This document shows positions 11,077 through 57,656 of a stretch of DNA of 63,982 bases, piece by piece. Position numbers and translations under genes: made by a program. The stretch comes from a virus: IMG/VR virus record IMGVR_UViG_3300027573_000001, positions 1-63,982 of that record; one strand, given 5' to 3'. Under the pieces are notes generated by a model. The model did no database searches. It was given only the letters and a program-made list of their open reading frames with translations, and was not told the DNA's origin. Positions within the stretch are counted from its first letter, which is position 1; the number at the start of each line of letters is the position of its first letter.

Positions 11077-12663
11077 TTATCCAAAGAAGTCATTACCAAA
11101 CTCGTCAATACCAAATCTAAAGGCTTCATCTTCGGCAACTAACTCACAACCTAATGTACAGGATACTAATTGCCCATTTAATATCTGTACTGTTTTGCTT
11201 TCTATGAAGTAATCATGATCCAAACCTTGTGCCGTTACAACAACATGTATTCTATCTGATATCCTACTTCTCATTATAAATAATGCCGCATCAACATTAC
11301 TATTATGCACTGTAAGAGTTAACTGATCTCTGGGTTCTCTGTATCTAGTTGCAATGGCGTTTACAATATCTTGTGCAATATTAGAATTAATCTCAGGCCA
11401 AATATCCACAGCTAAGCTGGAGGCACGATACCTAGCTAAAGAAAGTGCTACATCCACAGTAGACTGAACATGTGGAGTAGTAGTTATTACTAATTCTTGT
11501 GCTCTAAGATAAATACCGTCAGACTCCTGCCCTGATGGTCCCGTTATAACTGCACCAGCAGGGCCTGCTGTTATAGTAATACCTATATGTGTTCCACTAG
11601 TATTACTTAAAAGAACTGCGGTTACAGCACCACTAGAGACTAGGTAATCTACAGTATCTACTGGAGGTATAGCATTCTTAACAGGGTTATTGAGAGATGT
11701 CCATAAGGTCTTAATCTCATCAGCGCCTAATGTTAAGACTTGCCCGTAGTTCCATTTCTGGCCCGCTGGTGTAGTCAATTCTCTAACATTAGTTGTAGCA
11801 GTTACGTTGTTCCAAACCTCATCAGGATTTTGATTGAATACAGTAACAGGATTATGATATATAGGATTTCTAAAAGGGACAGTTACAGGATCAACTATCA
11901 TATCATATAAATACCATTGTACTGTATTAGACCTATAATTATTTATTCTATATTGCCTACCCTGAAAGTGTATCACTACCTGTTCGTCTATAACATCTGC
12001 ATATAAGAATGATCCTGGTCCCTCAGTAATCATTAATTTAGGAAATATATTAATAGGTAACTCATCGTCCATCCAGAAATAGTCTATTATTGCATCACCA
12101 GTATCAAAATCTCTAAAATTTGCTGGTATACCTAATTGATCGCATATAGCATGTAATATTAAATCTACTCTAGTATTCTCCATTAGTGGTAAAGTAACTC
12201 TCTTACTAACAAAGAATTCAAAATGCCCTAGAGAACTAATAGCTACGGATTTTATTGCTGCCAAAGTTTGTGGGGCCTGATCTACATATCCAAAGAATAT
12301 AGTAACAAACTCTGGATCATCTAATGTCCAGTCTTCTCCATCAAGGTCAATAGTATCTATCATATCAACATGTATGTCAGAGTTATGATATAATGCAGCC
12401 GCTGTAGACGGTCCCCTATTTACGAATCCTGCTAACGGACCAGCACCGTTATTATATTTTCCGTCTTGATTATTTAGAACAAACTCCATTGTTTCAACAC
12501 GGGCAGGTGCAGTACTCCTAGCTTGGTCCCTTCCCCACGTTGTTGAAAAAGTACCATTTAATACATCGTTAGTTACTTCCCAATAATCTGAGGTGTCAGC
12601 ATCCGTACCTTCACTCCAGTTTACTACTATTCTCTTTTCTAAAATTCTACTAAGCTCGGTCAT
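11077..12663 (-). CDS. Minor or distal tail protein (putative)
   Basis: Immediately downstream of the tape measure gene with a 4-nt overlap. Confidence 0.55.
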   Translation of the reverse strand: MTELSRILEKRIVVNWSEGTDADTSDYWEVTNDVLNGTFSTTWGRDQARSTAPARVETMEFVLNNQDGKYNNGAGPLAGFVNRGPSTAAALYHNSDIHVDMIDTIDLDGEDWTLDDPEFVTIFFGYVDQAPQTLAAIKSVAISSLGHFEFFVSKRVTLPLMENTRVDLILHAICDQLGIPANFRDFDTGDAIIDYFWMDDELPINIFPKLMITEGPGSFLYADVIDEQVVIHFQGRQYRINNYRSNTVQWYLYDMIVDPVTVPFRNPIYHNPVTVFNQNPDEVWNNVTATTNVRELTTPAGQKWNYGQVLTLGADEIKTLWTSLNNPVKNAIPPVDTVDYLVSSGAVTAVLLSNTSGTHIGITITAGPAGAVITGPSGQESDGIYLRAQELVITTTPHVQSTVDVALSLARYRASSLAVDIWPEINSNIAQDIVNAIATRYREPRDQLTLTVHNSNVDAALFIMRSRISDRIHVVVTAQGLDHDYFIESKTVQILNGQLVSCTLGCELVAEDEAFRFGIDEFGNDFFG

Positions 12664-15600
12664 ACTCGCAACCCTGGAACGCCGACATTTCTACCAGTCT
12701 TAGCCATGAGCTTCAAGCCGTAAATCATAATATTTTGTATCTGCTCATTACCGATTAAGACTGGTATCTGTATGGACTGCATAGGACCATCGTTACCATT
12801 ATTGTAATTAGCTGTAGCTGTAGTTCCTAATAACCGTTCAGGCTGTCCAGTTTCACCAGCTATACCCATCTCACCAGTACGCAAGCCTACCATTAATGTA
12901 GGTTCTACAATGTTCTTACCATGCTGGTAGCCTTGAATTATCTCTAAGTAGCGACGAGTTTCTCCAGGCATGTAGCCTTCTTGTAAGCTACCTTCACCAG
13001 CATTGTAAGCCCACAAAGCATTGCGTACACCTGGATTACCATGTAAACCACTGTACCTACGTTCCAAGTAATGCATGTATCGTGCGGCTTTGGTAAGAGA
13101 ATCTATAGGATCATAGACGTTTACACCTAGCATACGGGCCGTGCCGTCCGTGAACTGTGCTATACCCTTAGCTCCAGCGGAGGATTGTCGTCGTCCAGTG
13201 ATAACATCAGGATCGAAATTAGCAGACTCTTGACGCATCTGCCGCCCGAATAACTCTGGATCGCTAAAGTTTTCATTTTGTGCTATCTGTCGTGCTTTGC
13301 TTTCCCAATCAGTAGCCCTAACACGAATAACTACTACAGGACCGTTAGGGCCGAATGGATGTAATTCTAGTATCTCTCCAGTACCACCAATACTAGCCCC
13401 ACCAAGCGGATTAATAAATCCACCCATGTATGGTACAGGATCAATAGTACTGCCTACTGGATCACCGCCAGGACTCTTACGTACTTCATAATGTAAGTGT
13501 GGAGTATTCCACGGCTCTAGTCCAGTAGCACCCAACGTACCAATTAATTGACCACGAGTAAGGCGATCCCCTGCTTTTACCGATACATTATCTAAGTGAC
13601 CATAGTATTCATATAATCCAGTATCACGCATCCTAGTGATAAAGCCCTCACCACCAGCACTTTCACTCGTAGTATTTACTACATCAGCGTCAGTAAATGC
13701 TCCAAGTGGTGTGCCTCTACCACCATTAGGACCAGGCAAAGTTAAGTCAATACCTCTGTGACGTGAAGGGCCATTTGCCCACATGGCCCCACCAGCAAAC
13801 GGGCCGTTATATGGAGCATTATAAGGGAATAACGTATTAAACTGCCCGCCTGAGCTAGCCCCTACACCACCACCGCCGTCCATTCCACCACCACGACGCC
13901 CAGGACGGCCATCATCAGGACGTTGAAAGCCAGGGGCAATAAGTCCGCGTTGTTCTAACTCATTAATCTTATTAATAAAGTCACGTAAAGGTCCATCCAT
14001 TACATTACGTATACTTTGGTTTGTATCCCTCTCCCAACTATTCCACCATATTCTTTGATTTTCTATGCCTTGACGTATTCTTCTGTGTGCTTCTTCATTA
14101 CGAGTAATTAAGCCTTCGGGGCCGTCGTATACATCATGTATCTTACGCTTCTCTGCGTCGTAAGCTTCACTGATAATCCTGGTACGTTCATCATAAGCAG
14201 CTTTTGCCCGCTTATGCATCTCTTCCTGTTTGGCTAATAAGCCATCAACAGGATGGTCATAAACTGTCTTGATAGCCTCTATTTCTCTTTTGTAACCCTC
14301 TTCTACGAGTCTTGTACGTTCCGCATAACTCTCTCTAGCATTATCTATAGCACGTTTTAGTGCAGGAATGGAGCCTGTAAGCGGATCGTCATATGTAGCC
14401 TTAATGTCTTTTTGTTCAGCTTCATATGCTGAGTGAACTATTCTAGCTTTTTCAGCATACTGCTTTTGAGTTTCTTCTTTATTCTTACGTAAGCGTGCTA
14501 GTATACCATCAACAGGATCGTCGTATAAGTCTTGTAGTCTCTTCTTCTCATCATCGTAAGCCTGAGCAACAACTTTCTTACGATTATCAAAGTTTTCTTT
14601 TTCTTCTCTCTGTCGTTCCTTTAAAGCATCGACTGTTCTTTCGTAAGTCTCATTTACTTCATCACGTTCGCTTTCATACGCCTCAGTTATTTTTTCTTTA
14701 CGGCCTTCAAGAGCGTCATCTTCTTGCTTTCGTCTATCAGCTAGCAACTCCATTTGACGCTCATGTTCAGCATCTTCACGAGCGCGCTGATCTTCTATAT
14801 TTAGTTTTCTAGCCTCAAATGCTTGATCTTCTGCATAACGCTGATCGCTTACAGCACGAGAATAAGCTTCATACCTATCTCTAACTGCTTCTTTTTCGGC
14901 CTCAAAATTAAGTTTAACTGCGTCTGTTCGCTCTTTAAGTAGAGCTACCTGCGCGTCTCGACCAATTTCTAATTCAGTTCTTTGTTGCTCAATATGATTT
15001 TTTAGGAGGTTTAATTGGTCTTCTAGATTTACTCTAGCGGCTTCTTTTTCTTCATCTAAAGATGCTCTACGAGCAGCAACTTCATCTGTTAAAAGTATCT
15101 TAAGATTATCAAATCTTAATTTAGCAGTACTTTCTCTAAGATCATACTCAGCTTTAATAGTCGCTTCTGCGAGCTCGTATTCTGCCTTTAGCTGCTCTTC
15201 CCTATTCTTAAATTCTTTCTTAGCAGCATCTTCACGGAGCTTAAATTCGTCTTGTAACTGATCCTCTAGTAAGGATAATTCATCACTTACAGCATCTTTT
15301 TCTACTTTAAGAATTTCCTCAGCAGTCTCGTAGGACTGCCTGATACGCTCTCTACGTATCTCTTCTTCTATTCTTCTAACTTCTGTTACATCGCCTTTAC
15401 GCTCAGCTATAGTAAGAGACTGAGTAAGATCAGTTATTTTGTTTTCGCCAGCAAAAGCACGCTGTAGACTATTTACGGCTCGTATTCTAGAATCAAACTC
15501 ATCTAAACGAGCACGCTTCTCTTCTTGTATAGCCCCTAACGTTGCGCGCTTTTCTTCTTCTATCTGGTTTAATCTAACATCTCGTTCTTCTTCTAATTGA

Positions 15601-17897
15601 TTAAGTCTAGCATCACGCTCTTGCTCAATCTGGTTTAGTCTAGCATCTCCTTCAACCTCAATAGTGTCTAATGTTACACGTTCTTCTTCTTCAAGCTGAC
15701 GTAAACGAGTTGTATGCTCAGCCTTTAATGCGTTTTGTCTATCTTCTATATCATTAATAATTAATTGACTAGCTGCCTTAGACGCTTCTACTTGCGACTC
15801 GTAAGCGTCATTTATTATTTGTAATTGTTCTTGGTAAGCTTTCTGTACTGCTTGGGTTTCAGCCTGTAAAGCTTTTTCTACATTTCCTTGTCGGGACTCT
15901 AATGCTTCTAGTTCTTGTTCTTGTCTATCGCCTATTGCTCGATCTTCTAACTCACGACGACGATCAACACCCTCATTCTGTGCATCTAACGACCGATCTT
16001 CTAATTCACGCTGGCGCTCTATCTGGGCTAGACGTGCTTCTATACGTCGATCTTCTTGTATTCTAGCATTCTCTCTGGCTTTCTCTTGATCTTCTATACT
16101 CTCTAATGCATTATCACGTACTTCCTCAGCAGCCTGTAACTCTTTTTCTTTAGTATCTTCTGCTTGATCTAATCTAGATTGGAAGTACTTTTCCCTACGT
16201 GACTCTTCTATTTCTATATTTGCTAAAGCATTGTCACGAGTCTCATCAGCAGCACGCATTGCTAAGTCTTTAGCACGCTGCTGTTCAGCTATTTGTGTTT
16301 CTACAGCATCTACTATTGCGTCTTTCTCAGCATCCAAAGCTTCTAGCGTATTGTCTCTAGTCTCTTCTGCTAACTCTTTACGCTTATCTCGTGCAATTTC
16401 TTGCTGTGATATTTGCTCTTCCGCAGCTTTTATTACAGCTTCTTTTTCTACTTCTAAGCCACGAACAGCATTCTCTTTATTAGTTTCAGCAGTCTTTAAT
16501 TTCTCATCACGCTCGACACGTAGCTGAGTCATCCTCGCGTCGTGAGCATCATCCTCAGCACGCTTTTCATCTTCTAGAGCTTTTATCGCTCCATCTTTTC
16601 TATCTTCCGCTGCTTGTATAGCAGCATCCTTCGCGAATCCTGTTTGCTTTACTACATTATAATAGCGTTCGTCTTCCATCCGCATCTCTGCTTGTAAAGC
16701 AGCTTGAATGGACTCATTTCTTTCTTTGTTAGCTTTCTCCTGTGCAGTTAAAGCTGCTTTTAATGCAGTTTCAAATCTATCAAGTGCTTGCTTTTGCCTA
16801 GCCTCGTTATCCTCACCCTCTTGTAGAGTTGGACCAATAAATCCAGGCTCACCAGGAAACGGATCACGAGCCCCAGCTGCCGCTGCTTCTAAAGCATCTA
16901 ATTGTCTAATATATTCTTTTAATTCAGCAGTGGCTGCTATCCAATTACCAGCATGCTTAATTAATAAAAGATTAAATTGGGAAATAATATCCATAGCTTT
17001 TTGCTGACGAGCAGAATCAGTTATAAGTTTTGTCATAGCATTAGCGACATTAGTCATAGGAGGAAGTACTATTTGTAAAGCCTGATTAAGTTTTCCTCCT
17101 ATAGATTGACTTAGCTCAATAGTCGCTTTATTCCAAGCATCATATGTACCTAAGTCACTTTTAGCTCTATCTGTAATAGCACTTTGATACTGTAGTGACT
17201 GCTTTTGCGCTTCTGCTAAAAGTAGCTGTGCCCTTTCCGAATCTGATAAAGTATAGAAATGCTTACGTTGTGCTTCTGTCATTAAGCCAACGTTACGTAC
17301 AAAGTCTCGACCTAGAGTTAGGCCAAGCTTTTCCACAGCCTCACCCTCACCACGGATAGCTGCTTGAATATCTCTAGCAGACTGCTCCATATCTCTACCA
17401 CTCTTAGCAGAATATGCAGCAGTAAGTGTAGTAAGAGTCTTAATTTGATCGCTAGTCAAAGCATAGTTTTGCCGCAAGACTCCAAATGCTGTAATGCTGG
17501 CTTGAACCTCAGATGTGGCTCTATTAGTTTGTTTTCCTAAAGCTTCAGCAAATCTAGTATATTCAGAAGCTGAAGACTTGTAAGTTTGCGCTAATTCAAA
17601 CTGGACCTGTTGAAGTTTTATATTTGCAGCAACTGCCTCTGAAGTTACTTTGACTACGCCTTGTAGTCCTACACTAACACCAGCTAGAGCAGCACCAAGA
17701 GCTATAGCCGAGCCAGTGACACCCTTAAAAGAGGCACCTAGAGTATTACTACTCCCAGATGCTTGATTAATAGCAGTAGCTATTTTAGCAGACGACGCTC
17801 TAGCCGCAGCCTCACTCTGAGCAAATGCACGAAGCATCTGCTCATTGTTTGCCGTCATTAAGAATTCAGCTGCACCCAGACCGTATCTGTTTGCCAT
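12660..17897 (-). CDS. Tail tape measure protein (1745 aa) with C-terminal M23 peptidase and SLT lytic transglycosylase domains
   Basis: Long E/R/K-rich coiled coil. HRGIDL...HLHYEV (M23, about 13480-13780). RQESANF...GIAQFT...AYNAGEG (SLT, about 12990-13260). Confidence 0.9.
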   Translation of the reverse strand: MANRYGLGAAEFLMTANNEQMLRAFAQSEAAARASSAKIATAINQASGSSNTLGASFKGVTGSAIALGAALAGVSVGLQGVVKVTSEAVAANIKLQQVQFELAQTYKSSASEYTRFAEALGKQTNRATSEVQASITAFGVLRQNYALTSDQIKTLTTLTAAYSAKSGRDMEQSARDIQAAIRGEGEAVEKLGLTLGRDFVRNVGLMTEAQRKHFYTLSDSERAQLLLAEAQKQSLQYQSAITDRAKSDLGTYDAWNKATIELSQSIGGKLNQALQIVLPPMTNVANAMTKLITDSARQQKAMDIISQFNLLLIKHAGNWIAATAELKEYIRQLDALEAAAAGARDPFPGEPGFIGPTLQEGEDNEARQKQALDRFETALKAALTAQEKANKERNESIQAALQAEMRMEDERYYNVVKQTGFAKDAAIQAAEDRKDGAIKALEDEKRAEDDAHDARMTQLRVERDEKLKTAETNKENAVRGLEVEKEAVIKAAEEQISQQEIARDKRKELAEETRDNTLEALDAEKDAIVDAVETQIAEQQRAKDLAMRAADETRDNALANIEIEESRREKYFQSRLDQAEDTKEKELQAAEEVRDNALESIEDQEKARENARIQEDRRIEARLAQIERQRELEDRSLDAQNEGVDRRRELEDRAIGDRQEQELEALESRQGNVEKALQAETQAVQKAYQEQLQIINDAYESQVEASKAASQLIINDIEDRQNALKAEHTTRLRQLEEEERVTLDTIEVEGDARLNQIEQERDARLNQLEEERDVRLNQIEEEKRATLGAIQEEKRARLDEFDSRIRAVNSLQRAFAGENKITDLTQSLTIAERKGDVTEVRRIEEEIRRERIRQSYETAEEILKVEKDAVSDELSLLEDQLQDEFKLREDAAKKEFKNREEQLKAEYELAEATIKAEYDLRESTAKLRFDNLKILLTDEVAARRASLDEEKEAARVNLEDQLNLLKNHIEQQRTELEIGRDAQVALLKERTDAVKLNFEAEKEAVRDRYEAYSRAVSDQRYAEDQAFEARKLNIEDQRAREDAEHERQMELLADRRKQEDDALEGRKEKITEAYESERDEVNETYERTVDALKERQREEKENFDNRKKVVAQAYDDEKKRLQDLYDDPVDGILARLRKNKEETQKQYAEKARIVHSAYEAEQKDIKATYDDPLTGSIPALKRAIDNARESYAERTRLVEEGYKREIEAIKTVYDHPVDGLLAKQEEMHKRAKAAYDERTRIISEAYDAEKRKIHDVYDGPEGLITRNEEAHRRIRQGIENQRIWWNSWERDTNQSIRNVMDGPLRDFINKINELEQRGLIAPGFQRPDDGRPGRRGGGMDGGGGVGASSGGQFNTLFPYNAPYNGPFAGGAMWANGPSRHRGIDLTLPGPNGGRGTPLGAFTDADVVNTTSESAGGEGFITRMRDTGLYEYYGHLDNVSVKAGDRLTRGQLIGTLGATGLEPWNTPHLHYEVRKSPGGDPVGSTIDPVPYMGGFINPLGGASIGGTGEILELHPFGPNGPVVVIRVRATDWESKARQIAQNENFSDPELFGRQMRQESANFDPDVITGRRQSSAGAKGIAQFTDGTARMLGVNVYDPIDSLTKAARYMHYLERRYSGLHGNPGVRNALWAYNAGEGSLQEGYMPGETRRYLEIIQGYQHGKNIVEPTLMVGLRTGEMGIAGETGQPERLLGTTATANYNNGNDGPMQSIQIPVLIGNEQIQNIMIYGLKLMAKTGRNVGVPGLRV

Positions 17898-26813: not shown

Positions 26814-27170
26814 TTACGGAGCAAAAGCTATGTCGCCTTTACCTACAGTTGTTTCTATTCCATTCGCCTCTTCTACATGTACCCTACAACGATACGTAGT
26901 TTTAATAGTTATAGGATCAGTGTCTTCTGGATTTATAGCTACTATTACTACACCGTCTTCTGAGGTACCTTCTAAAGCTATACCAGCACCTAGAGACTTT
27001 CCTATACTCTGTACAGGAGCAGCAGCATCAGGTAAAGCTAATGTAGCACTAAATGTAACTGTAGCTCCAGTTAAGTCTACTGGCGTAGATACGCCATTTA
27101 CTGTACGTACTATTGGTACACGTATGAATACTGTATCACCACGTACTAAGTCAAAATAAAAATCAGACAC
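26814..27170 (-). CDS. Ig-like (BppU-type) domain small protein, putative
   Basis: FDLVRGDTVFIRV...PVDLTGATVTF pattern. Confidence 0.45.
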   Translation of the reverse strand: MSDFYFDLVRGDTVFIRVPIVRTVNGVSTPVDLTGATVTFSATLALPDAAAPVQSIGKSLGAGIALEGTSEDGVVIVAINPEDTDPITIKTTYRCRVHVEEANGIETTVGKGDIAFAP

Positions 27171-30100
27171 GAGTTACACTCGCAGTCGCGTTGTTATGTA
27201 AGGTAATATCGGCTGTTCTCTGGTTTACCAATGTTATATTAGCTGTAGGAGTAACTAGCACAATTATTATTTCCGCAGTACTCGACATCCCTAGCAAAAA
27301 GCCTGTAAACGTTACGCTAGTTGCTCGTCCTGCTACAAACTGTGTCTTTAATTGACTTGCGCCTCTAATATTACTAGTAGATTGTCTATTAGCTATAAAC
27401 TGTGATCTTAATCTAGCTAAGTTACGGATATTAGTAGTGGATTGCCTATTAGCTATAAACTGTGATCTTAATGTAGCCGAATTACGAATTATTGAAGTGT
27501 TAGACCTGTTCGGCACAGTAGCTATAGCCATATGCCCATATGAAGTTGTTATTATAATAGTAGTACTAGCTCGTAGTCCAACACTACGTATGTGTGATCG
27601 TGTACGTGTAGATGTAGTGCTACTTGATCCACGTATTGCGGTAGAGGTCATACGCCCTATAGCGCGTAATGCAGCAACACCTTCCGTACCAATAACTGTA
27701 AGAGTAGTAGATGCTATACGTGCTCGACCATGTATACGTGCTAATGCAGTGCGAGCACTAGTAACAACTAAACGTGAATCAACCGTTCCACGTTCACTTG
27801 CAATACCAGCAGAGGCTTTCGTAGCTTGTATAGTAGCTCGTATAAAGGAACGTAACGCTGTTGTAGTAGTACCAGCATGTACACCAGCAGTAATAGATCG
27901 GCCAAAGCTCCGTATGTTAGTTACGGTTGCAGTCGCTTTTACTCCTGAATTGACAGCATGTGTAGCCGCACGTATGGATGCAGTAGTTATACTGTTTCGT
28001 GTGACTACTATTATTTCTCGAAGAGACGTACTATGTATACGCGCAGTATTTGTACTAGCTTTAATACTAGTTGTAATTAGCCGCGCTGTACCTTGTATAC
28101 GAGCAGTGTTAGCTACAGCTTTTGTAGCAATTATGGATTGACGTATTGTACCACGTATACTTATAGTAGAAGATACTGCCTTTGTACTAGCCGTTAGTAA
28201 TCGACCTACTGCATGTATTCGCGTGGTATTGAATGCCGCCTTTGTACTAGTAGTTACAGCCCTATTTGTTGTATGTATTCGAGTGGTATTGGATACTGCC
28301 TTTGTACCAACACTTAATAGTCGGCCTACTGCATGTATCCTAGCATTAGAAGTACTAGCCGCATCCTTTATTGCAATATCAGATAGCCTACCTAATCCAT
28401 GTATACGAATAGTATTTGATACTGCTTTTGTAGCACTAATAACATCTCTGCTTAATCCATGTATACGAGCAGTATTTGATACTGCCTTTGTAGTACTAGT
28501 GATATTTCTGCCTAATCCATGTATACGAATAATAGTTGATACTGATTTCGTACTGACATCAGATAGCCTACCTGATCCGTGTATCCGAATAGTATTTACA
28601 GCTCCCTTTGTAGTACTAGTAATATTTCTACTTAATCCATGTATAAGAGTAGTATTTGCTACTGCTTTTGCAGCAACGTCAGACAGTCTACTTAATCCAT
28701 GTATACGAGTAGTATTTGCTACTGCTTTTGCAGCATTAGCAATACTTCTACCTGATCCATGTATACGAGTAATAGTTGATACTGCTTTTGTACTAACAAT
28801 ACTGGACCTACTTGCGCCATGTATACGAATCGTGTTTGCAGCTACTTTTAAGCTAATATCAGAGAGTCGCCCTAATGCGTGTAATCGAATAGTATTAGAT
28901 GCTGCCTTTAATCCTAGAACTACCTCCCTACCTGATCCTTGTATACGAGTAGTATTTGCTACTGCCTTTGCTGCTATTGCTATTACTCGCTGTGTACCTC
29001 TTATGGAAGTAGTAACTGTACCAGCATGAACACCTGCTGTTACTGAACGGCCATCTCCTAATAGAGTTGCTGGTAAACCAGCGCCTACTGCATTTATTCC
29101 TGTAAGTCGTAAAATCGGTCCGCTACCAGACTCAGGGTCAGACTGTGCTTTATCACCTAGACTAATATATGCTTGTGTACCATCAGGACTCCAGGTAAGT
29201 CTACCTACTACGTACCCTTCATATGGAGCAGGAGGTATCCCACTACCATCTTGATGTTGATGCCCAGGAGCATAATTAACGAATGTTAGACGACGCTTAT
29301 TTGCACCTGTACTATCCATAAGCCATATGTCCATAGGTAGCCTATCGATAAATGTATTATCTCTATTCGAAGCCCACGCAATTACTCTTGGAGTAGTTGG
29401 TGAGTAATGAGCATGTTCATCCCAATTGAACAATTCTCCCGACTGACCATGAGAACCTACCAAACGAGTTACATTTGTGCCATCTAAGTCACAAATGAAT
29501 ATGTCCAATGTTTCTTGTACGTGATTAGCAACAGCTACGTTACCTGTAAATATTATTTTATATACACCAGCACCTAGTCCTGGTATAAATTCATGAGTTT
29601 CATAGAATTTACCCTCAGGGGTAGGGTCAACAATAACTGGTGAGATGTTTGCAACTGATGATAATGTAGGTACTCCACCAGGCCAGCTTAATGTAGCGGT
29701 ATTAATTCTCCAGTATCCATATGGTGCATTAGCATCTGCTGCTGATCGTAAGCTAGCCCATGCTACACGTAAGCCATCTTGGCTTACGCAAGGTTGTAGG
29801 CTACCTATTGAGCCATCAGTATCATATTGCCATACACGAGTATGTCCTGTGCCATCTGCTGCACATACCCATAAATCACAATGCCAGCCTTGTCCTGGTG
29901 TCCCTGGTAGCGATGGCCCATCACGCTGAGCCATGTATAAGATATATGTACCTACAGTTGGACGTGTAAACCAAAATCCGTTTCCACAGTGCGATTGCGG
30001 CGCACCAGAAACGCCATATGTTAAAGCAACTTTGTTGCTTACGAAATCAGAATCAACAGCATACATGTGGAAAGTAAGAGTACCGCCAATATCAACATGT

Positions 30101-30339
30101 TCACTATAGAGTACCCTATTAGAGCCTAAATGATCCCAACGTGGGGCCGATGCTCTTGGATGTACCATATGAGCGGATACAAATACACCCTTACTACCAA
30201 ATGACTTTATTTGTCCGTTAGCATAAAAACCTGCTGCTCCAGACGTAGCAGGTGCAGTCGAACCTGCAAACGGAGTAGTACGTCTATGTGGTTGCGGTTG
30301 GTAAGGAGTACGAGTAGGTTGCGGACGAAATAAAGACAT
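27163..30339 (-). CDS. 1058-aa protein: TolB/PD40-like beta-propeller N-terminal half plus about 28 tandem 20-aa repeats
   Basis: DIWLMDSTGANKRRLT, LTWSPDGTQAYISL and VSQDGLRVAWAS (PD40-like). Repeats TKAVSNTTRIHGLGRLSDVS. Confidence 0.8.
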   Translation of the reverse strand: MSLFRPQPTRTPYQPQPHRRTTPFAGSTAPATSGAAGFYANGQIKSFGSKGVFVSAHMVHPRASAPRWDHLGSNRVLYSEHVDIGGTLTFHMYAVDSDFVSNKVALTYGVSGAPQSHCGNGFWFTRPTVGTYILYMAQRDGPSLPGTPGQGWHCDLWVCAADGTGHTRVWQYDTDGSIGSLQPCVSQDGLRVAWASLRSAADANAPYGYWRINTATLSWPGGVPTLSSVANISPVIVDPTPEGKFYETHEFIPGLGAGVYKIIFTGNVAVANHVQETLDIFICDLDGTNVTRLVGSHGQSGELFNWDEHAHYSPTTPRVIAWASNRDNTFIDRLPMDIWLMDSTGANKRRLTFVNYAPGHQHQDGSGIPPAPYEGYVVGRLTWSPDGTQAYISLGDKAQSDPESGSGPILRLTGINAVGAGLPATLLGDGRSVTAGVHAGTVTTSIRGTQRVIAIAAKAVANTTRIQGSGREVVLGLKAASNTIRLHALGRLSDISLKVAANTIRIHGASRSSIVSTKAVSTITRIHGSGRSIANAAKAVANTTRIHGLSRLSDVAAKAVANTTLIHGLSRNITSTTKGAVNTIRIHGSGRLSDVSTKSVSTIIRIHGLGRNITSTTKAVSNTARIHGLSRDVISATKAVSNTIRIHGLGRLSDIAIKDAASTSNARIHAVGRLLSVGTKAVSNTTRIHTTNRAVTTSTKAAFNTTRIHAVGRLLTASTKAVSSTISIRGTIRQSIIATKAVANTARIQGTARLITTSIKASTNTARIHSTSLREIIVVTRNSITTASIRAATHAVNSGVKATATVTNIRSFGRSITAGVHAGTTTTALRSFIRATIQATKASAGIASERGTVDSRLVVTSARTALARIHGRARIASTTLTVIGTEGVAALRAIGRMTSTAIRGSSSTTSTRTRSHIRSVGLRASTTIIITTSYGHMAIATVPNRSNTSIIRNSATLRSQFIANRQSTTNIRNLARLRSQFIANRQSTSNIRGASQLKTQFVAGRATSVTFTGFLLGMSSTAEIIIVLVTPTANITLVNQRTADITLHNNATASVTRV
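27310..29050. repeat. Tandem 60-bp intragenic repeat array (about 28 degenerate units)
   Basis: Units stay in register with the 60-column sequence layout (for example lines 28381-28741 share ..atccatgtatacga..agtatttg.tactgc.tttg). Confidence 0.9.
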
Positions 30340-30358
30340 GTGTAGTTAGTAGTTAGTA

Positions 30359-30859
30359 TTAGTTTTCGTCTAGTACTAGTACAATGTCCCAACCACCTAA
30401 TATAGATGGTGCAGCTAAAAACCGAACAACAAATAATGTAGATGGCGGTACCAAAATCTCTTCTGTAGGATCGGGTTTATATAAGTATCCTGCTGTATTA
30501 GCAAAGGCAAAAGGATGAATACTAGCATACGTACCACCAGAATCAGCCGAAGAGTTAACACCAGAACGTGCGGTACCGCCAGCAGGCGCGGTGTTACCAG
30601 TTAATCCAGATGCAGGTCCGTCTAACGGTCGAATATTACGTGGAGTAGCTGCCGTCATTGTTAATGTACCAGCAGTATTACGAGTAGCTAACTCACCACG
30701 TACCATCGCTAATGTAGTAGAAGCATGCTGACTAATCTCTATACGCTTTATAAGTACGTGAGCCGCGGCATTATTAACAGCAGCACTTTGAAATGCTACT
30801 AATACGAAACCTGTACTTAGTGTCAAGTTTTCGCCTACTAGTTCTGTTACACGGCCCAC
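30359..30859 (-). CDS. Hypothetical protein
   Basis: ORF track; same-strand packing. Confidence 0.5.
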   Translation of the reverse strand: MGRVTELVGENLTLSTGFVLVAFQSAAVNNAAAHVLIKRIEISQHASTTLAMVRGELATRNTAGTLTMTAATPRNIRPLDGPASGLTGNTAPAGGTARSGVNSSADSGGTYASIHPFAFANTAGYLYKPDPTEEILVPPSTLFVVRFLAAPSILGGWDIVLVLDEN

Positions 30860-30880
30860 GTTTTAATCCTTTTTAGTATG

Positions 30881-32086
30881 CTACTGTACTAGCAATTGAT
30901 TCATTTGTCTATGACCACTTAAACCAAATGGTCTACCATGTAATTCTGGTGTATCTTGTGGAGTGTAAGCTACGTATATTCCAGCCCAACATAGATGTAC
31001 TTCGCCAGTATTAGCATTTGTTTTAGCAATACGTACTACTGGCTGTGTAGTTAGAGTTACTGTTGGCGACTCTGTAACTGGACCACTTCTAGTATACCAG
31101 TTAGTAGAATATGTGCCAATAGCTCCAACATTCACCCCCGCTAGGAATGTATTGCTAGAACCGCTAGCAGGATTGGATAGGATCTCTACTGTACCAGTTT
31201 TGCTACCCGATGCTGCTCCCTCTCCATGAACCGTAGTAGCATGTACTGCCCTAATGATGTCATCTTCTTTTAATCCGAAATTACTATATGACTGACATGC
31301 TAAATCTAAATTATTTGGTACTGTCGCATTTGCATTTTTAACCTGAGATGTATTCGTATCAGCGGTTGTCGCTACACCAACAGGAGGAACATTATTTACT
31401 GCTTCGAATAAGTTTGTTGTTCCTCCTGCACCACCTACCCAAGAATTGATAGCACTATCAGATACAGGTAGTAGGATACCAACTTTCCAACTACCCCAAA
31501 TAGTAGCTAAATTTGCGTCATCTGATACAATACCACTAAACAACAGATAAGCCGTTGTTGCATCAATCACACCAAAAACTTGTCTACCCTTAGCGACTGA
31601 TGCAGTAGTCGCTACACTAGCCCATTCTTCACCATCTACAAATACCCTTCTACCATTACCACTAGACCAGCCTACATCAAATTCTATCCAGTGTAATTTC
31701 CCATCAGGTATAAAGGCTTTGGTACTTGTAGCATCGAGAACAAGTGCCCTACCAATGCTTAATGTCCCATTTGAGTTTAGAGTCAACATATCAAAGTATG
31801 ATGTTCCATCAGATAAAGCAACAATTCTAGTACCTGCCGATGGTAAAGCAGCTATCCGTAACCCAAATCTTACTGATCTATAAATTGATGGCACCGTACC
31901 AGCACTATCTACCTGTCCCAATTGTACGAGTGCTGCCGCTGCTGTCGGATTTGTTCGTACTTCATAGTTATGACTTGCACCTAGTGGTGAAGGTACAATA
32001 CCTACTGTGCCCGACGCAAGATTTGATTCACCACCCGCTACTGCTATTGAACCCGACTCTGGCCCATATATGTTTGTTGTAGCCAT
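30881..32086 (-). CDS. Hypothetical protein, possible concanavalin/LamG-like lectin fold
   Basis: GKLHWIEFDVGWSSGNGRRVFVDGEEWAS resembles LamG-type strands; weak. Confidence 0.45.
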   Translation of the reverse strand: MATTNIYGPESGSIAVAGGESNLASGTVGIVPSPLGASHNYEVRTNPTAAAALVQLGQVDSAGTVPSIYRSVRFGLRIAALPSAGTRIVALSDGTSYFDMLTLNSNGTLSIGRALVLDATSTKAFIPDGKLHWIEFDVGWSSGNGRRVFVDGEEWASVATTASVAKGRQVFGVIDATTAYLLFSGIVSDDANLATIWGSWKVGILLPVSDSAINSWVGGAGGTTNLFEAVNNVPPVGVATTADTNTSQVKNANATVPNNLDLACQSYSNFGLKEDDIIRAVHATTVHGEGAASGSKTGTVEILSNPASGSSNTFLAGVNVGAIGTYSTNWYTRSGPVTESPTVTLTTQPVVRIAKTNANTGEVHLCWAGIYVAYTPQDTPELHGRPFGLSGHRQMNQLLVQ

Positions 32087-32129: not shown

Positions 32130-32744
32130 CTAATCTATCTGCATGGTAACGCTAGTGACAGTGTGAGTACCCTGTGCGCCAAATACTTCAGCAACAATAC
32201 GCTGTAAGAAACCAGAACCTACAGCAGTAATATTAATAGCCGCGCCACCACTCGTAAGAGACAACTGCAAGTCATCAGTTGTAGCAGTAATAACAAAGTA
32301 AATAGTACCTTCAACTAATGGAGCAGGTAGGGACGCTCCAGGCACAGCCCATACTACAACAGTCTGTCCGTTGGTAAATCCGTGTGATGGAGCCTCTAAT
32401 ATATCATTAGCAATATCTGGTACTGCAAACGCTTCAGGTATTCCTGCACCATTCGGTACCATACCCTTAAAGTCACCAACAGTAATAGCGTCCCAACCAC
32501 CAATCCATGCTACAGTAGAACCTGCTGGTACATCAAATACTGGTGCAGTAGATGTAGCTTTGCTTCTACCTGTAGCAGCGGCCCAGGTCGCGACCTCTCT
32601 AGTGTAGGCGGGAGCACCACCAGTAAGCTCGTTAGTACCAGTAGCACTATACGCAGAGTGCAAACTAAAGTGGGTTATGCCCTCGGCATTGGCTTCATCA
32701 AGGGCATCTAACATTACACGTACTGCTTGGTCGCTAAATCTCAC
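32130..32744 (-). CDS. Hypothetical structural-type protein
   Basis: ORF track; SLHSAYSATGTNELTGGAPAYTREV resembles a motif common in phage virion proteins. Confidence 0.45.
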   Translation of the reverse strand: MRFSDQAVRVMLDALDEANAEGITHFSLHSAYSATGTNELTGGAPAYTREVATWAAATGRSKATSTAPVFDVPAGSTVAWIGGWDAITVGDFKGMVPNGAGIPEAFAVPDIANDILEAPSHGFTNGQTVVVWAVPGASLPAPLVEGTIYFVITATTDDLQLSLTSGGAAINITAVGSGFLQRIVAEVFGAQGTHTVTSVTMQID

Positions 32745-41876: not shown

Positions 41877-43547
41877 TCACTCCACGCTCATACTATCCAC
41901 ATACACTAGTTCTTCCTTAGCGCGTGTCACGCTAACATACTGTAAGTTCTTTTCCTGTACTAACTCCCATTCCTGCTTTGCCCACCTACTCGGCATGAGC
42001 CCACGATCCAAGACAAACACTCGCCGTGCTTCCAGCCCCTTACTCTTGTGCACACTAGCGCACACTACATACTTACCCTTGATACCATCCTCCCCTGCAC
42101 TCTTCGGAAACATGGTATCAATCGTGTCGTTTAGGTAAGTAATGTCCTGCTTACCGTCATCAATCAACGAATCACTAAGCAGCAACAGGCAATCAACCTT
42201 GTCTGCCACTGCCGCCGCCTTACCCTCCTGTTTCCGCTCAACACACCTACTTACTTCCGCCGCGCCCCACTCCCGCAACCTACTCTGAAACTCACTCAAT
42301 CCCTTACACTTACTCCCTGCAACCCGCCGAATAAGTGCCTTCAACCCTGCACCAATGTCCCGTCCCATCACCTTGACAGGTACCCTAGCCTTCAGGCACT
42401 TATACGCCACGCCTAGCAACGGTGCATTATTCCTGCACACCACTAGATCATCCTTACCCTCACTCCACCTCCAATCTTCCACACTCCATTCCGACACCCC
42501 TCGCACAATCCCTACACTTGCCCCTTCCCGTGCTTCAATATGCGGCACGTATTGTTGTGCCTCACGTACCACACTTGCCGCACACCTATACGAAATACTG
42601 AGCGGTAGCTCCACGCAACCAAACGTATCCCTTATGAGCGCCATGCTATCAGCATCGGCACCCCTAAAGCCATATATAGCTTGGTACTCGTCGCCTACTG
42701 CAATCAACCGTGCATTCCCTCGCGGACCGCTTTGCAGCAATCTTTGCAGTATGTCACGCTGCACGGCGTTAGTATCCTGGCTTTCGTCCACCATGACGTA
42801 CTGCCACGGACTTCCGTACTTATTGCCTACCCTTGCACCCAAGAGTGGCACAAAGTACAGCATATCGTCAAAATCAATCATACCCCCGCACCCAACAATA
42901 TCGTTATTCCGTGTCAGCACCGCCCGAGCGCACATAATCACGGCCTCATCACTAATAGAATCGTCATCCGATTCTATGTCGTAATGTGCCATCAAAGCGC
43001 GCAATTCCTCCGCCGACTGGTCGGGCATCATTACGTTAGCTTTCATGAGGCTAACAAGTTTCTTGACGGCACTCTTGGCCCCACTAAGCGCCTCATCCTT
43101 ACCGTACAACTCATCAAAGATACCGTCCACTTTATAGGCGTCGGTATCCTTTGGGCCAAACTTACGCCCCGTTCTACTCTCAATCACTGGCACAATCGCT
43201 GCACGACCTAGTGCATGGAACGTACTAGCTACTACGTTCGCGGGTAGTTTACGCTTTAGCTCTTCAGCGATGGCCTTATTGAACGCCAGGAATACGCCAC
43301 TCTTCCCACTCTTTGCCATCTCCCGCGCCAGCATGACTAGCGTACTAGTCTTACCACTACCAGCAACCGCCTGGATAATACCGTTACTCGTTTCCGTCTT
43401 GAACCAATCTAGAATCGCCTGCTGATATACGCTAGGCTTATGCTCAATCGGCGTACTAACCTCATTCCGAACGGCGGGCGCACCATACTGCCCATGTCCG
43501 CGCCCCGTACTACCGTACTTCTTAGGCTGCCACTTACCGTAAGCCAT
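41877..43547 (-). CDS. UvrD/Rep/PcrA-family SF1 helicase
   Basis: AVAGSGKTSTLV, VMVDESQDTN, GDEYQAIYGFRGA, SISYRC, VHKSKGLEARRVFV, YVSVTRAKEEL. Start set to MAYGKW (AGGAG SD); the ORF track starts at 43595. Confidence 0.9.
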   Translation of the reverse strand: MAYGKWQPKKYGSTGRGHGQYGAPAVRNEVSTPIEHKPSVYQQAILDWFKTETSNGIIQAVAGSGKTSTLVMLAREMAKSGKSGVFLAFNKAIAEELKRKLPANVVASTFHALGRAAIVPVIESRTGRKFGPKDTDAYKVDGIFDELYGKDEALSGAKSAVKKLVSLMKANVMMPDQSAEELRALMAHYDIESDDDSISDEAVIMCARAVLTRNNDIVGCGGMIDFDDMLYFVPLLGARVGNKYGSPWQYVMVDESQDTNAVQRDILQRLLQSGPRGNARLIAVGDEYQAIYGFRGADADSMALIRDTFGCVELPLSISYRCAASVVREAQQYVPHIEAREGASVGIVRGVSEWSVEDWRWSEGKDDLVVCRNNAPLLGVAYKCLKARVPVKVMGRDIGAGLKALIRRVAGSKCKGLSEFQSRLREWGAAEVSRCVERKQEGKAAAVADKVDCLLLLSDSLIDDGKQDITYLNDTIDTMFPKSAGEDGIKGKYVVCASVHKSKGLEARRVFVLDRGLMPSRWAKQEWELVQEKNLQYVSVTRAKEELVYVDSMSVE

Positions 43548-43604
43548 TACACACTCCTGGTCACGTTTGTTTCGTTCTGACAATGCTTCAAACATGCACG
43601 GTTC

Positions 43605-43650
43605 GACCGCTCGCGGCCACTCTGTACCCTGTGCAAAGAGCTAAAGATAC
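43605..43650 (-). repeat. Dispersed motif copy I (core CCCTGTGCAA 43627-43636 on plus)
   Basis: Reverse complement reads TATCTTTAGCTCTTTGCACAGGGTACAGAGTGGCCGCGAGCGG; upstream of the helicase gene. Confidence 0.8.
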
Positions 43651-43991
43651 AATCCGTGCACGCCTACCGCTCACACTTGCACGTACATGGTTTGCCATCA
43701 TCAGGCCGTAAGTGACCAACTTACGACGACAATACATGCGCCATTCGACGCATGTACTGTTTCGGCATTACTACTCCAATCCGAACTCGGAACGGTTGTA
43801 TACCATGACCGCTCTGATATGCCGCACAATCAACGCCGTAACGTTATCGTGCACTCTCTCACTATTCACGCGGGCCGACATCCAAGTGCAACGCAATCCT
43901 CCATGCATCACGTTGCTACTATAGATGTTACTTTGAACGTTCAATACACGGCAGATATCGTCCGCCGCCGTATCCTCCGAAACTGTCACGT

Positions 43992-44225
43992 CTAGTCGAT
44001 ATGCACAGAACATGACCAAATACCCCAATTCCATGGACTATCTGCACTAACGCGCTTGACGAAACTATTGTCAAGCGTATCCGAAACGATAATCGTATCG
44101 TTTCGGTACTTATACTCTAACAACCTGACGCACTGGTCGCGCATACCCTTTACCGAGTCGGTCCAGTAGACAATCTCATTGTCCACGTATGCACGAAACC
44201 TATCACCGCGAGCCTTACGTGCCAT
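43992..44225 (-). CDS. Hypothetical protein
   Basis: GAGGG/AGGA SD before MARKARGDRF. Confidence 0.5.
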   Translation of the reverse strand: MARKARGDRFRAYVDNEIVYWTDSVKGMRDQCVRLLEYKYRNDTIIVSDTLDNSFVKRVSADSPWNWGIWSCSVHID

Positions 44226-44333
44226 TCCTAATCCCTCAGCGACTAACGACCATCGCTGCAATAGCCAACGCGGCTACTGCGTCATACATCACGAATAACG
44301 CTAACGCAATCAAGCGCCGATCCTCAGCGTTCA

Positions 44334-44486
44334 CTACAATCTAACCTCGCCTCTATCGTCTACGTCCATTCCGAACGTAAACACCGCCAGCATCTCCGAA
44401 CAATCGGCGCAAACATCGGCGGCGTATGGCTGCATGCTTACAGTCATGTGACCGCAAATACTGCACGGCATCTCGTCGTCGAACAT
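44334..44486 (-). CDS. 50-aa zinc-ribbon protein (below ORF-track cutoff)
   Basis: Manual translation MFDDEMPCSICGH...CADCSEML. Confidence 0.35.
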   Translation of the reverse strand: MFDDEMPCSICGHMTVSMQPYAADVCADCSEMLAVFTFGMDVDDRGEVRL

Positions 44487-44493
44487 ATCCCCA

Positions 44494-44709
44494 TCATGCG
44501 CGCGCATACGTCACCCCTTCCTGTACTTCCTCCACGGTGTACATTCGACGCATACCACAATATCGAATCAACTCGTTAGCTGATTCGATACTGATATCTG
44601 CCACTGAACCGTCACTAGTCACCACAACGGCGTGCGTGCTAAACGCTGGAATAGTGATGCTACTCCAAACATCACTATCTGTCAGGTGCCGTACAACGTA
44701 TTCCCTCAT
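44494..44709 (-). CDS. Hypothetical protein
   Basis: GGAG SD upstream. Confidence 0.55.
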   Translation of the reverse strand: MREYVVRHLTDSDVWSSITIPAFSTHAVVVTSDGSVADISIESANELIRYCGMRRMYTVEEVQEGVTYARA

Positions 44710-44714
44710 GGTCG

Positions 44715-45068
44715 TTACTCCAACGTCTCGAAGTACTTATAGATACGATCCATGACCGTATCGTCTAGGGTAGTGCCATAATCGGCGATGCAATCAATAC
44801 CGTTACCCAACACGACAAAAAACCATGATTTTCTGTCGCCATTGCTAACGCTAACGGTAGACTCATCAACGGAAAAGATAACGTCTAGCGTTTCCTTTTC
44901 CGTCAATACTTGATACCGTTCTTCCCCATCGTGTACGTGTGTCACGATCCAGCCAGCGTACTTTAGCTGACGGATCGCGTACCGAATGCACTTCTTTTCA
45001 AGTGCAATCCGATCATGGGCTATGTTGCACGGTTGCCTACACGTTGTACTGCACTTACCCTGCACCAT
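44715..45068 (-). CDS. Hypothetical protein
   Basis: GAGGG SD upstream. Confidence 0.55.
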   Translation of the reverse strand: MVQGKCSTTCRQPCNIAHDRIALEKKCIRYAIRQLKYAGWIVTHVHDGEERYQVLTEKETLDVIFSVDESTVSVSNGDRKSWFFVVLGNGIDCIADYGTTLDDTVMDRIYKYFETLE

Positions 45069-45159
45069 CGCTATACCCTCACAATCGCGTTTCCTGGCTC
45101 GTACAGGCCGCTATGGCCCACTAGCGTACTTTCGTACCCTAGTGGGCTATGGCGGACCG

Positions 45160-45300
45160 TCAAGCCTTACCGTATCGCTTTGCGATCCACTGATAGAACG
45201 CTACGTAAACGTTTATGTCACTAGGGTCTGTAGCGTAAAGCAAAGCGATTGCCATAAAGACAATCGCGGGCAGAACCAAGTAACCCAACACAACTTCCAT
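45160..45300 (-). CDS. Small single-TM protein
   Basis: AGGAG SD before MEVVLGYLVLPAIVFMAIALLY. Confidence 0.45.
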   Translation of the reverse strand: MEVVLGYLVLPAIVFMAIALLYATDPSDINVYVAFYQWIAKRYGKA

Positions 45301-45663
45301 GATCGTCACTCCTGGTCGGCATACGTGCCGCACTAACCCACTAGCTTTCACTAGTGGGCTAGGTCAGACGTAGTACCATAGCGTGCCGCTCATAACGGCC
45401 ACGCATAAGAGAGTAAAGAGCTAATGAGACGTATTGCTGACTATGTACGCTACCGTCACTTACCCGATTCATCCCTACGTAACTGCCTACACTGTCACCA
45501 ATTCGAGGCGTTCACTTCCGCCGTACCGATGGCCGCTAGCAGTGTTCCGAGTCTACTGTCGTTCGTTCTGTGAACGTAGGGTGTAAGGCTAGACGCCCGC
45601 GCTGCACGGATGTTTTACGCTCGCCCCCTGGTGGGGCTTGCAACCGTGTCACCAGTTTTATGC

Positions 45664-45775
45664 GTTGAGAGTGGAGATTACTCCGCCGTTCTTACTAGTG
45701 GCGTTTCCGTCCTACCAGACCGTTGTACGCTAACGGACCAACGTGTGTCGGTAGACTACTGTCGCCACTCTCAAC
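45664..45775. other. 112-nt closed multi-hairpin element (candidate structured RNA) in the GC-rich non-coding stretch
   Basis: 11-bp perfect closing pair GTTGAGAGTGG (45664-45674) / CCACTCTCAAC (45765-45775) with internal CCGTT..AACGG and CGCC..GGCG hairpins. Confidence 0.35.
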
Positions 45776-46202
45776 TTGTAAATGTGCCCGCCCGTGCTTC
45801 AAGTCACAGTATGCTCCTTTCCTGGTCGGCCTACAATAGATATGTGCGCCCAAAAGCCTCATAACGAGCGCACTATGTATCCTATAATTCAAGTATGCTC
45901 ATAACCCTACGCTTTGTGCAGTCGAACGGCGAGCTAATGATACAGCGTATCAATAAACACTACATGACAATACTGTCAGGCAAATACACTTTACATCGTG
46001 TCATTTTGGCTATTTAGGGATATCGTTTATCTCAATTAGGGTAGTGTCTCCGCATGGTTTGACACGTATTGTCGCTGTACGGGCCTACAAACGCCATTTT
46101 CAGGGTGTACAATTTGAGCTAAACAAGTTTAGTACACTAGATCGGAGTTTTGAGCTAAAATGTAAAGAAATAACTAATAAAACGTTTTACCTCGAATAAC
46201 TA

Positions 46203-57402: not shown

Positions 57403-57476
57403 GGGGCGGAAGCATAACTGGTATATGCAGGCGTCTTATAAGCGCCAGATAGTGCGTTCAAGTCGCACCCGCCCTA
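57403..57476 (+). tRNA. tRNA-Ile (anticodon UAU), tentative
   Basis: Hand fold: acceptor GGGGCGG/CCGCCCT (G1-U72), D stem GCAT/ATGC, anticodon stem GGCGT/GCGCC with loop CTTATAA, T arm GTGCG-TTCAAGT-CGCAC. A at position 8 is atypical. Confidence 0.55.
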
Positions 57477-57478
57477 CC

Positions 57479-57568
57479 GAGTAGAAAGATGACTAATACC
57501 GTGAGGATTAGTGGTGAGTAGTTAGCTATTCGGACTAGCTAATTATCCTATGCAGCATCTTTCTACTC
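57479..57568 (+). ncRNA. Closed structured element 1 (13-bp closing stem, two inner hairpins, GUGA tetraloop)
   Basis: GAGTAGAAAGATG (57479-57491) pairs perfectly with CATCTTTCTACTC (57556-57568). Inner hairpins ACTAAT.CC[GTGA]GG.ATTAGT and TAGTTAGCTA..TAGCTAATTA. Confidence 0.5.
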
Positions 57569-57570
57569 AT

Positions 57571-57654
57571 GCCCGCATGGCGGAATTGGCAGACGCAACT
57601 GATTTAAAATCAGTCGCCAGTAATGGCATCAGGGTTCGAGTCCCTGTGTGGGCA
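57571..57654 (+). tRNA. tRNA-Leu (anticodon UAA), long variable arm
   Basis: Acceptor GCCCGCA/TGTGGGC, anticodon arm ACTGA-TTTAAAA-TCAGT, T arm CAGGG-TTCGAGT-CCCTG. Confidence 0.85.
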
Positions 57655-57656
57655 CC

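Follow-up and report, generated by a model that had tools for sequence, protein, structure and literature searches.

The virus record IMGVR_UViG_3300027573_000001 of IMG/VR encodes a 1058-residue protein in which a beta-propeller is followed by a long, strongly basic array of 20-residue repeats. The window examined here is the whole stretch of 63,982 nucleotides (positions 1 to 63,982 of that record), a siphovirus-like phage genome that looks complete and whose genes include those for terminase, portal, prohead protease, HK97-type capsid protein, DNA polymerase, helicases and three transfer RNAs (tRNAs). The repeat gene is located in a same-strand operon, the order of which is portal, a 204-amino-acid (aa) protein, a 401-aa protein, a 166-aa protein, the repeat protein, a 118-aa protein, prohead protease and major capsid protein. 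Because the gene neighbourhood and the domain swaps among relatives fit such a role, we propose with moderate confidence that the repeat protein serves on the virion of this siphovirus-like phage as a structural accessory fibre or as an adhesin.

The repeat array and the propeller

The original prediction, made from the sequence alone, had described a beta-propeller protein of 1058 residues whose C-terminal half consists of about 28 tandem repeats. The open reading frame (ORF) is real, and its parts are collected in Table 1. The 20-aa period spans residues ~431-1014. Over aa 431-1010, residues 20 positions apart are identical with a frequency of 0.35, as against ~0.08 at other lags, and the signal stands at z = 35 when compared with 2000 shuffles, in which the maximum taken across lags 5-60 is 0.129 +/- 0.006. 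A hidden Markov model (HMM) of the unit recovers 17 significant units at aa 437-861, and ~11 further units, up to aa 1014, are degenerate; the figure of about 28 is therefore correct if the degenerate units are counted. Taken separately, aa 801-900 have a lag-20 identity of 0.20 and aa 901-1010 one of 0.36, with a background of ~0.1. The register shifts within the array are two and small, being +2 aa near residues 657-678 and +1 near 779. Within aa 437-778 there is additionally a 40-aa super-period, in which RLSDV units alternate with RNITST units. At the level of DNA, Tandem Repeats Finder (TRF), which had been named as a check on the unit statistics, returns periods of 60 bp, 120 bp and 180 bp at 28172-28970, and a two-copy 60-bp repeat at 27368-27486 with 88% matches.

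Table 1. The repeat gene, its parts and its neighbours, with positions in the window
Feature	Position	Strand	Extent or description	Basis
Downstream partner gene	26814..27170	minus	118 aa, isoelectric point (pI) 4.4	ORF list; position
Repeat-protein coding sequence	27163..30339	minus	1058 aa plus stop codon, ATG start	ORF list
C-terminal element	27166..27297	minus	aa 1015-1058	Read from sequence
C-terminal sub-family, three units	27298..27477	minus	aa 955-1014	TRF array 27368-27486
Degenerate 20-aa units	27478..28005	minus	aa 779-954	Lag-20 identity, register listing
Well-conserved 20-aa units	28006..29031	minus	aa 437-778	Unit listing, TRF, HMM
Beta-propeller domain, roughly six blades, PD40/TolB-like	29095..30177	minus	aa ~55-415	AlphaFold2 and Foldseek
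N-terminal peptide	30178..30339	minus	aa 1-54	Precedes propeller
Two genes between Gp80-like and repeat gene	30359..32086	minus	401 aa and 166 aa, function unassigned, tight operon	
Gp80-like gene (GP4 'fibre I protein gp80'-like)	32130..32744	minus	204 aa	Identity to PF23140-matching relatives

The core consensus of the repeat is xKAVSNTxRIHGxGRxxxxx. Among 15 core units, K2 is found in all 15, I10 and R15 in 14 each, T7 and R9 in 13 each, N6 and H11 in 12 each, and G12 in 11. The conservation of Thr, Arg-Ile-His-Gly and Gly-Arg, which the original prediction had pointed out, is thus confirmed; it had overlooked the invariant Lys2, the conserved Asn6 and the mini-repeats at the C-terminus, and likewise the positive charge of the array, the acidic partner, the Gp80-like gene and the propeller as a probable insertion. 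The sub-family that it had counted three times at the C-terminus is present, with the motif (A/S)xL(R/K)(S/T)QF(I/V)A(N/G)R..., as two near-identical copies and a third one that is diverged. The hydrophobic C-terminal segment was also rightly seen. It is the strand AEIIIVLVTPT, which is followed by three mini-repeats of ~10 aa (TANITLVNQR, TADITLHNNA and TASVTRV), and a similar hydrophobic strand with short repeats closes three of the relatives discussed below (P0001, P0068 and the 534-aa protein of L009).

The repeat matches nothing in Pfam (up to E 10), PHROGs, NCBIfam or the sequences of the PDB, the last including a search with a two-sequence profile. The family, along with its charge pattern and its conserved gene partners, is not described in the domain libraries searched. 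The 580 residues of the array have a pI of 12 and a net charge of +71, and contain no Trp, one Tyr, six Phe and one proline. Arrays related to it in sequence are equally basic, with a pI near 12.

The fold of the array was modelled with AlphaFold2 as a monomer, on aa 437-778, the input being seven array segments aligned in register. The result is all-beta and of moderate confidence, with a predicted local distance difference test (pLDDT) of 67.6 and a predicted template modelling (pTM) score of 0.66. Each modelled unit consists of a 6-residue strand (T7-G12), a 2-residue turn, a 10-residue strand that runs from R15 to V4 of the next unit, and a turn at S5-N6; the Asn and Gly of the turns are conserved, as a beta-solenoid would require. 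A Foldseek search of the PDB with this model gave no significant match (best E 0.18); its weak neighbours all belong to the beta-solenoids, namely autotransporter passengers, LpxA/GlmU, RsaA and the curli protein CsgA, and the matches in a viral library are mostly unnamed proteins of uncultured phages. The regular solenoid that the original prediction held plausible is consistent with this model, and its view that the repeat belongs to no described family has held in both the sequence and the fold searches.

In front of the array, the N-terminal peptide carries LFRPQP, an APATS motif (aa 29-33) and one degenerate repeat unit, and is modelled with a pLDDT below 50. The propeller had been claimed from PD40/TolB-like signatures, and it is well supported, although by homologues and structure and not by the protein's own score. 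The match of the protein itself to PD40 (PF07676) is sub-threshold, with 16.1 bits against a cut-off of 20.9 (E 0.011), whereas the homologues P0006, P0007, P0009, P0010, P0012 and P0017 pass the cut-off with 36-50 bits. An exhaustive profile search yields ~500 relatives of aa ~87-448, and those scanned have PD40 above threshold. The AlphaFold2 model, built with 62 sequences, reaches a pLDDT of 82.5 and a pTM of 0.82, and shows 21 strands in blade-like groups. Its top Foldseek match in the PDB is an oligogalacturonate lyase of family PL22 (3pe7, E 3.9e-9), with a TM-score of 0.42-0.48 and a root-mean-square deviation of 8 A, a modest fold similarity. The next matches are TolB (4pwz, E 9.7e-8), propellers of S9 peptidases, and sialidases, with TM-scores of 0.4-0.5.

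Identity between the 60-bp units of the array is only 55-85%, and no exact direct repeat exceeds 29 bp, which indicates that the array is old and has undergone no recent amplification. The identical 1058-aa protein is found on four contigs, among them a JGI (Joint Genome Institute) and a Logan assembly. Short-read assembly is known to handle tandem repeats badly, and the array could in principle be an artefact of collapsed or expanded repeats; this is very improbable, as the units are so diverged, the four contigs agree, the frame stays open for 1058 codons, and the architecture is common to homologues. Copy number does change within the array family. The relatives P0001 and P0152, which come from different samples, have proteins that are identical save one exact 20-residue unit, on contigs that are more than 99.8% identical in DNA and differ there by a single indel of 60 bp, with a 7-bp direct repeat (11/12 bases) at its flanks; therefore, units are gained or lost. 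The original prediction of an array prone to expansion and contraction agrees with this one-unit change, but it overstated slippage, given at most 29 bp of exact identity. The variation in repeat number that it expected exists between these two homologues and is not seen among the four contigs of the window phage itself.

At 30340-30360 (minus strand), no Shine-Dalgarno-like sequence precedes the ATG of the repeat gene; the spacer is a 7-bp tandem repeat, TAACTAC, in ~3 copies. This hints at a host with weak use of Shine-Dalgarno sequences. The plus-strand ORFs at 27437-28141 (234 aa) and 28223-29029 (268 aa) have no support as genes and were rejected; such long antisense frames run through the array because the repeat has no stop codons on the opposite strand.

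Relatives and recurring gene neighbours

Relatives of the array by sequence are few, and every one is metagenomic. They were assembled into an Arg-rich array group, which consists of P0001/P0152, P0068, P0142, and the proteins of L009 (534 aa), L012 (619 aa) and L013 (246 aa). P0001 and P0152 have the same architecture as the window protein, at 41% identity. In P0068 the array is joined to a Laminin_G_3 domain, in P0142 to an N-terminal domain without assigned family, and the L009 protein is nearly pure array with no added N-terminal domain. Arrays of the relatives share an APATS-type opening peptide, a hydrophobic C-terminal strand and short C-terminal mini-repeats; the same N-terminal peptide with an APATS-type motif starts the arrays of L009, L012, L013 and P0001. 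The window protein has the traits of this group, with units that are homologous by BLAST and phmmer, a basic array, the APATS-type start and the hydrophobic C-terminal strand. Furthermore, the N-terminal part of P0152 in front of the propeller shares 46% identity with the N-terminus of the all-repeat L009 protein, and the propeller therefore looks inserted into an ancestral all-repeat protein.

Scans of IMG/VR with the whole protein, and with the repeat half alone, returned no relatives. Among cultured-phage records, tblastn and megablast gave no match to the window protein or its neighbourhood and none to P0068; for P0142 only the N-terminal domain was matched.

The array gene is found at different places in different phages. 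In L006 the homologue occupies the same gap between portal and protease as in the window, with genes for a Laminin_G_3 protein of 712 aa and for two glycosyltransferases as neighbours. The L008 and L009 homologues are located downstream of the tape measure and distal tail genes. The two glycosyltransferase genes of L006, a high-GC relative, lie at 14018-15744, between the repeat cassette and the prohead protease, and prompt one to ask if the Ser/Thr-rich rod, or other proteins of the virion, might be glycosylated. In L013, the array gene is directly preceded, at 12368-13072, by an ORF with a LAGLIDADG-type motif (YIAGYFDGEGC), which judging by the motif is possibly a homing endonuclease next to the module.

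Seven places hold an array gene of what we call the W type: the window, L006, L092, L008, L009, L012 and L013. In all seven, a small acidic gene lies directly 3' of the array gene, often overlapping its stop codon. In the window, the partner gene starts at a GTG and shares its first 8 bp with the stop-codon end of the repeat gene, and the partner product has a weak match to an LtfC-like beta-sandwich (E 0.0099). The acidic partners in the other six places are 94-115 aa long, with a pI of 4.4-4.9.

The second recurring neighbour is the Gp80-like gene, so named for fibre I protein gp80 of the Ralstonia podophage GP4. It is found near the array gene in 6 of the 7 places, while the contig of L092 (3.1 kb) does not reach far enough to tell. 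The 204-aa product in the window has itself no Pfam match up to E 1; its identity is 68-79% to proteins that match PF23140, and 68-70% to the neighbours of the repeat gene in L006, L008 and L009, which match that family. Between W-type places the Gp80-like copies are 68-72% identical, as against ~35% for portal and capsid of the same phages. The family is large, with 671 homologues at E <= 0.001, of which the best 120 are 62-79% identical. In the window protein, the N-terminal half matches PHROG 240 'head protein' and the C-terminal half tail-fibre PHROGs, and genes of the family occur not only in head and tail modules but also in the midst of small non-structural genes (L010, L011).

The 401-aa and 166-aa genes have no family match in libraries including Pfam, PHROGs and NCBIfam. 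L009 has genes of 446 aa and 156 aa in similar order and of similar size, with no sequence similarity found between the two pairs. Homology of the two window genes to the N-terminal domains of P0068 or P0142 was considered and dropped, as none was detected. A scan for promoters and terminators revealed nothing that marks the repeat-gene cassette off from the surrounding operon.

Proteins with a 20-aa period occur more widely beside Gp80-like genes. Eighty IMG/VR loci that encode a Gp80-like or Gp80-N-like protein were examined with their flanks, and a same-strand ORF with such a period was present in the flank of 50; at the control lags 14-26 the count was 0-2 loci, and at lag 30 it was 8. The periodic ORF often begins 80-100 bp downstream of the Gp80-N-like gene. 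The heads that precede these repeats include a SASA esterase (L075), an alginate lyase (L080), a phytase-type propeller with Laminin_G_3 (L091) and DUF4082 (L090). The repeats of this wider class differ in sequence, some being neutral or acidic, and only 3 of the periodic ORFs from IMG/VR match the W-type arrays by phmmer. Homology of the window array to the neutral 'GTGxxSQT' 20-aa arrays was rejected (hhalign probability 4%). By analogy, the wider class looks like a recurring stalk design with shared gene linkage and not a demonstrated superfamily. Similar gene pairs are present in cultured Actinomycetota, namely Microbacterium sp. CJ88 (NZ_CP196042.1, at about 641-644 kb) and Kribbella qitaiheensis.

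Possible roles of the protein

The mechanism that we propose for an accessory fibre or adhesin is conditional with regard to solenoid geometry, presence on the virion, the attached end, the oligomeric state and the ligand. Judging from the repeat model, the array would form the core of a rod, a beta-solenoid with two strands per rung and ~28 rungs, each 20-residue unit making one strand-turn-strand layer. Asn6 and Gly12/Gly14 would lie in the two turns of each rung, Ile10 and adjacent aliphatic residues would point inward, and Lys2, Arg9, His11 and Arg15 would form ladders of positive charge on the exterior. At 4.8 A per rung, such a rod would be ~13 nm long. The PD40-type propeller, inserted just behind the first repeat unit, would provide specificity, most likely by binding or cleaving an acidic polysaccharide of the host surface, and the polycationic stalk would add non-specific affinity for polyanionic cell-surface polymers. 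The C-terminal element, with its hydrophobic strand and three mini-repeats, may cap or dock the rod. The whole would travel as a mobile gene module, in which the translationally coupled small acidic protein may serve as chaperone, cap or adaptor, and which would usually include the highly conserved GP4 fibre-I-like protein.

Several points weigh against a fibre or adhesin. The presence of the protein on the virion is something that we infer, and in the window phage the gene sits in the head module, not in the tail module. The repeat model, from seven rows, is of moderate confidence only and, as a monomer model, is blind to a trimeric fibre fold. The wider class of 20-aa-periodic proteins is not detectably homologous to the window array, and its enzyme heads lend support by analogy only. 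The 118-aa partner has no detectable homology to the acidic partner family; the idea of a homologue was dropped, and the agreement is one of place, size and charge only. Finally, at several positions where the wider propeller family conserves a histidine, this protein has another residue (QPCVS for HPHFS, and WFTRP for WHPSG). Catalysis is therefore doubtful, and the propeller may only bind a polysaccharide.

The position of the gene raises the question of a head structure. The protein could decorate the capsid or neck, as a head fibre or collar whisker that sticks to surfaces and is not the primary receptor-binding protein. In the window and in L006 the genes lie between portal and prohead protease, within the head module, the N-terminal half of the linked 204-aa protein resembles a head protein, and the fibres of GP4 are joined to the particle by an adapter ring that encircles the head-to-tail adapter (PMC11445570). 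However, in L008 and L009 the homologous module comes after the genes for tape measure and distal tail, and gene position alone does not fix a site on the virion; we regard decoration as a possible but rather unlikely role. The charge of the array (pI 12, net +71) would suit quite another place, inside the head, where a polycationic rod could bind packaged DNA or from where it could enter the cell, and internal head proteins are in some phages encoded right after the portal and minor head genes, as this one is. Such an internal, DNA-associated or ejected protein is improbable, as the attached domains (PD40 propeller and Laminin_G_3) are of extracellular type, relatives are located in tail modules, and a folded propeller of ~40 kDa would be hard to pass through the tail channel.

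The mobility of the module can also be read in another way. A module that takes differing genome positions in different phages, with a Gp80-like gene that also occurs away from structural genes (L010, L011) and a cassette that is 68-72% identical where portal and capsid reach ~35%, might be moron-like mobile cargo, or might encode a late enzyme or binding protein outside the virion, for example one that degrades exopolysaccharide and is released at lysis. Against this, the genes are embedded in structural operons with no sign of a promoter or terminator of their own, and translational coupling to a small partner gene is typical of pairs of fibre and assembly factor. We consider a non-virion role unlikely, and retain the accessory fibre or adhesin as the preferred reading.

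Comparison with known systems places the protein among familiar designs without assigning it to any of them. Depolymerase tailspikes and fibres likewise combine a globular, sugar-directed domain with a repetitive beta rod and are encoded in structural operons. In classical tailspikes, however, the enzyme is the right-handed ~22-residue parallel beta-helix itself, and anchoring is by the N-terminus, whereas in the window protein the globular domain is N-terminal and the rod has no family match. The choline-binding repeats (PF01473) of LytA, Cpl-1 and the combined repetitive oligopeptides (CROPs) of clostridial toxins are stacked hairpin-like units that form a solenoid and bind cell-surface polymers. 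They share the 20-residue period; their conserved aromatics (GW...WYY) contrast with the near absence of Trp and Tyr in the window array, which has no Pfam match. Curli CsgA resembles the array, as modelled at a pLDDT of 67.6, in its strand-turn-strand rung of ~20 residues, with a Gly-x-Gly turn and Asn at the other turn, yet the Foldseek match to 8c50 is not significant (E 1.9), the consensus Sx5QxGxGNxAx3Q is absent, and the ladders are of Gln/Asn in CsgA and of Arg/Lys/His in the window array. TolB/PD40 propellers and PL22 proteins provide the best PDB fold matches of the propeller, which has the beta-propeller fold and 'WSPDG'-type PD40 motifs in common with such proteins; the low TM-scores, the sub-threshold PD40 score and the replaced histidines set it apart.

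RHS/YD repeats, suggested by 'GRL', were rejected on a consensus mismatch, the lack of a Pfam match and the almost complete lack of Tyr; pentapeptide repeats (4 x 5 = 20) were rejected as their consensus does not fit and Pfam shows no match. No fibre shaft of the triple beta-spiral or beta-helix type (adenovirus, reovirus, PRD1 P5, T4 gp5) is among the PDB fold matches of the monomer model.

The closest working analogy is the fibre system of GP4, in which an immunoglobulin-like adapter of 93 aa forms the ring through which the fibres are attached (PMC11445570). In the window, the repeat gene is linked to a gene whose close relatives match PF23140, and a beta-sandwich-like protein of ~100 aa is encoded beside the putative fibre gene. 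GP4 is a podovirus, whereas the window phage has a long tape measure protein; the GP4 chains in the PDB have no sequence match to any of these proteins, and no description of anything like a 20-aa array was found in the GP4 texts consulted. The comparison is thus meant as an analogy and not as a claim of membership. The role, as fibre, adhesin or depolymerase carrier, is already familiar; the repeat family, its charge pattern and its gene partners are new to the libraries searched.

Further features of the genome and meaning of the repeat module

Other parts of the window are of separate interest. The tape measure protein (12660-17897, minus strand, 1745 aa) has a metallo-endopeptidase-like region at aa ~1378-1491, where PHROG matches are annotated as metallo-endopeptidase, peptidase and endolysin, and a transglycosylase-like region at aa ~1546-1656; it would therefore carry two predicted cell-wall-degrading activities. 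A 444-aa protein of the tail region (8128-9462, minus strand) contains four repeated stretches that match PHROG 30680 (unknown function), and is a second repetitive structural protein of the window phage. The stretch 42001-46000, which includes the helicase gene at 41877-43595, has a G+C content of 0.50-0.52, compared with ~0.41 elsewhere, and a strongly negative GC skew, and may have been acquired separately. The tRNA genes at 57403-57656 and 60690-60765 (plus strand) are Ile-TAT, Leu-TAA and Val-TAC, all of which read A-ending codons.

Receptor-binding and depolymerase proteins set the host range of phages and are the parts most often engineered. If the proposed role is true, the window protein represents an undescribed modular stalk that accepts a propeller, a lectin domain or no head at all; in other phages, 20-aa stalks of an analogous kind bear esterase and lyase heads. 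The neighbouring gene, being so conserved, would then be a handle for finding such proteins in metagenomes, and the ladders of positive charge on the rod a possible principle of adhesion. A family definition is now given for a repeat that current domain libraries miss, and the genomes of Microbacterium sp. CJ88 and Kribbella qitaiheensis are cultured actinobacterial settings where analogous modules could be studied.

As a tentative suggestion, the Arg/Lys/His-laddered array may be a new beta-solenoid family, a polycationic rod that binds polyanions and needs a dedicated acidic partner, and that combines with the GP4 fibre-I-like protein in a mobile fibre module into which varied enzyme or lectin heads can be plugged. 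Were this so, its targets would be polyanions such as uronic-acid exopolysaccharide, teichoic acid or nucleic acid, and the 20-residue rung would be a general, as yet unnamed stalk design of many uncultured phages.

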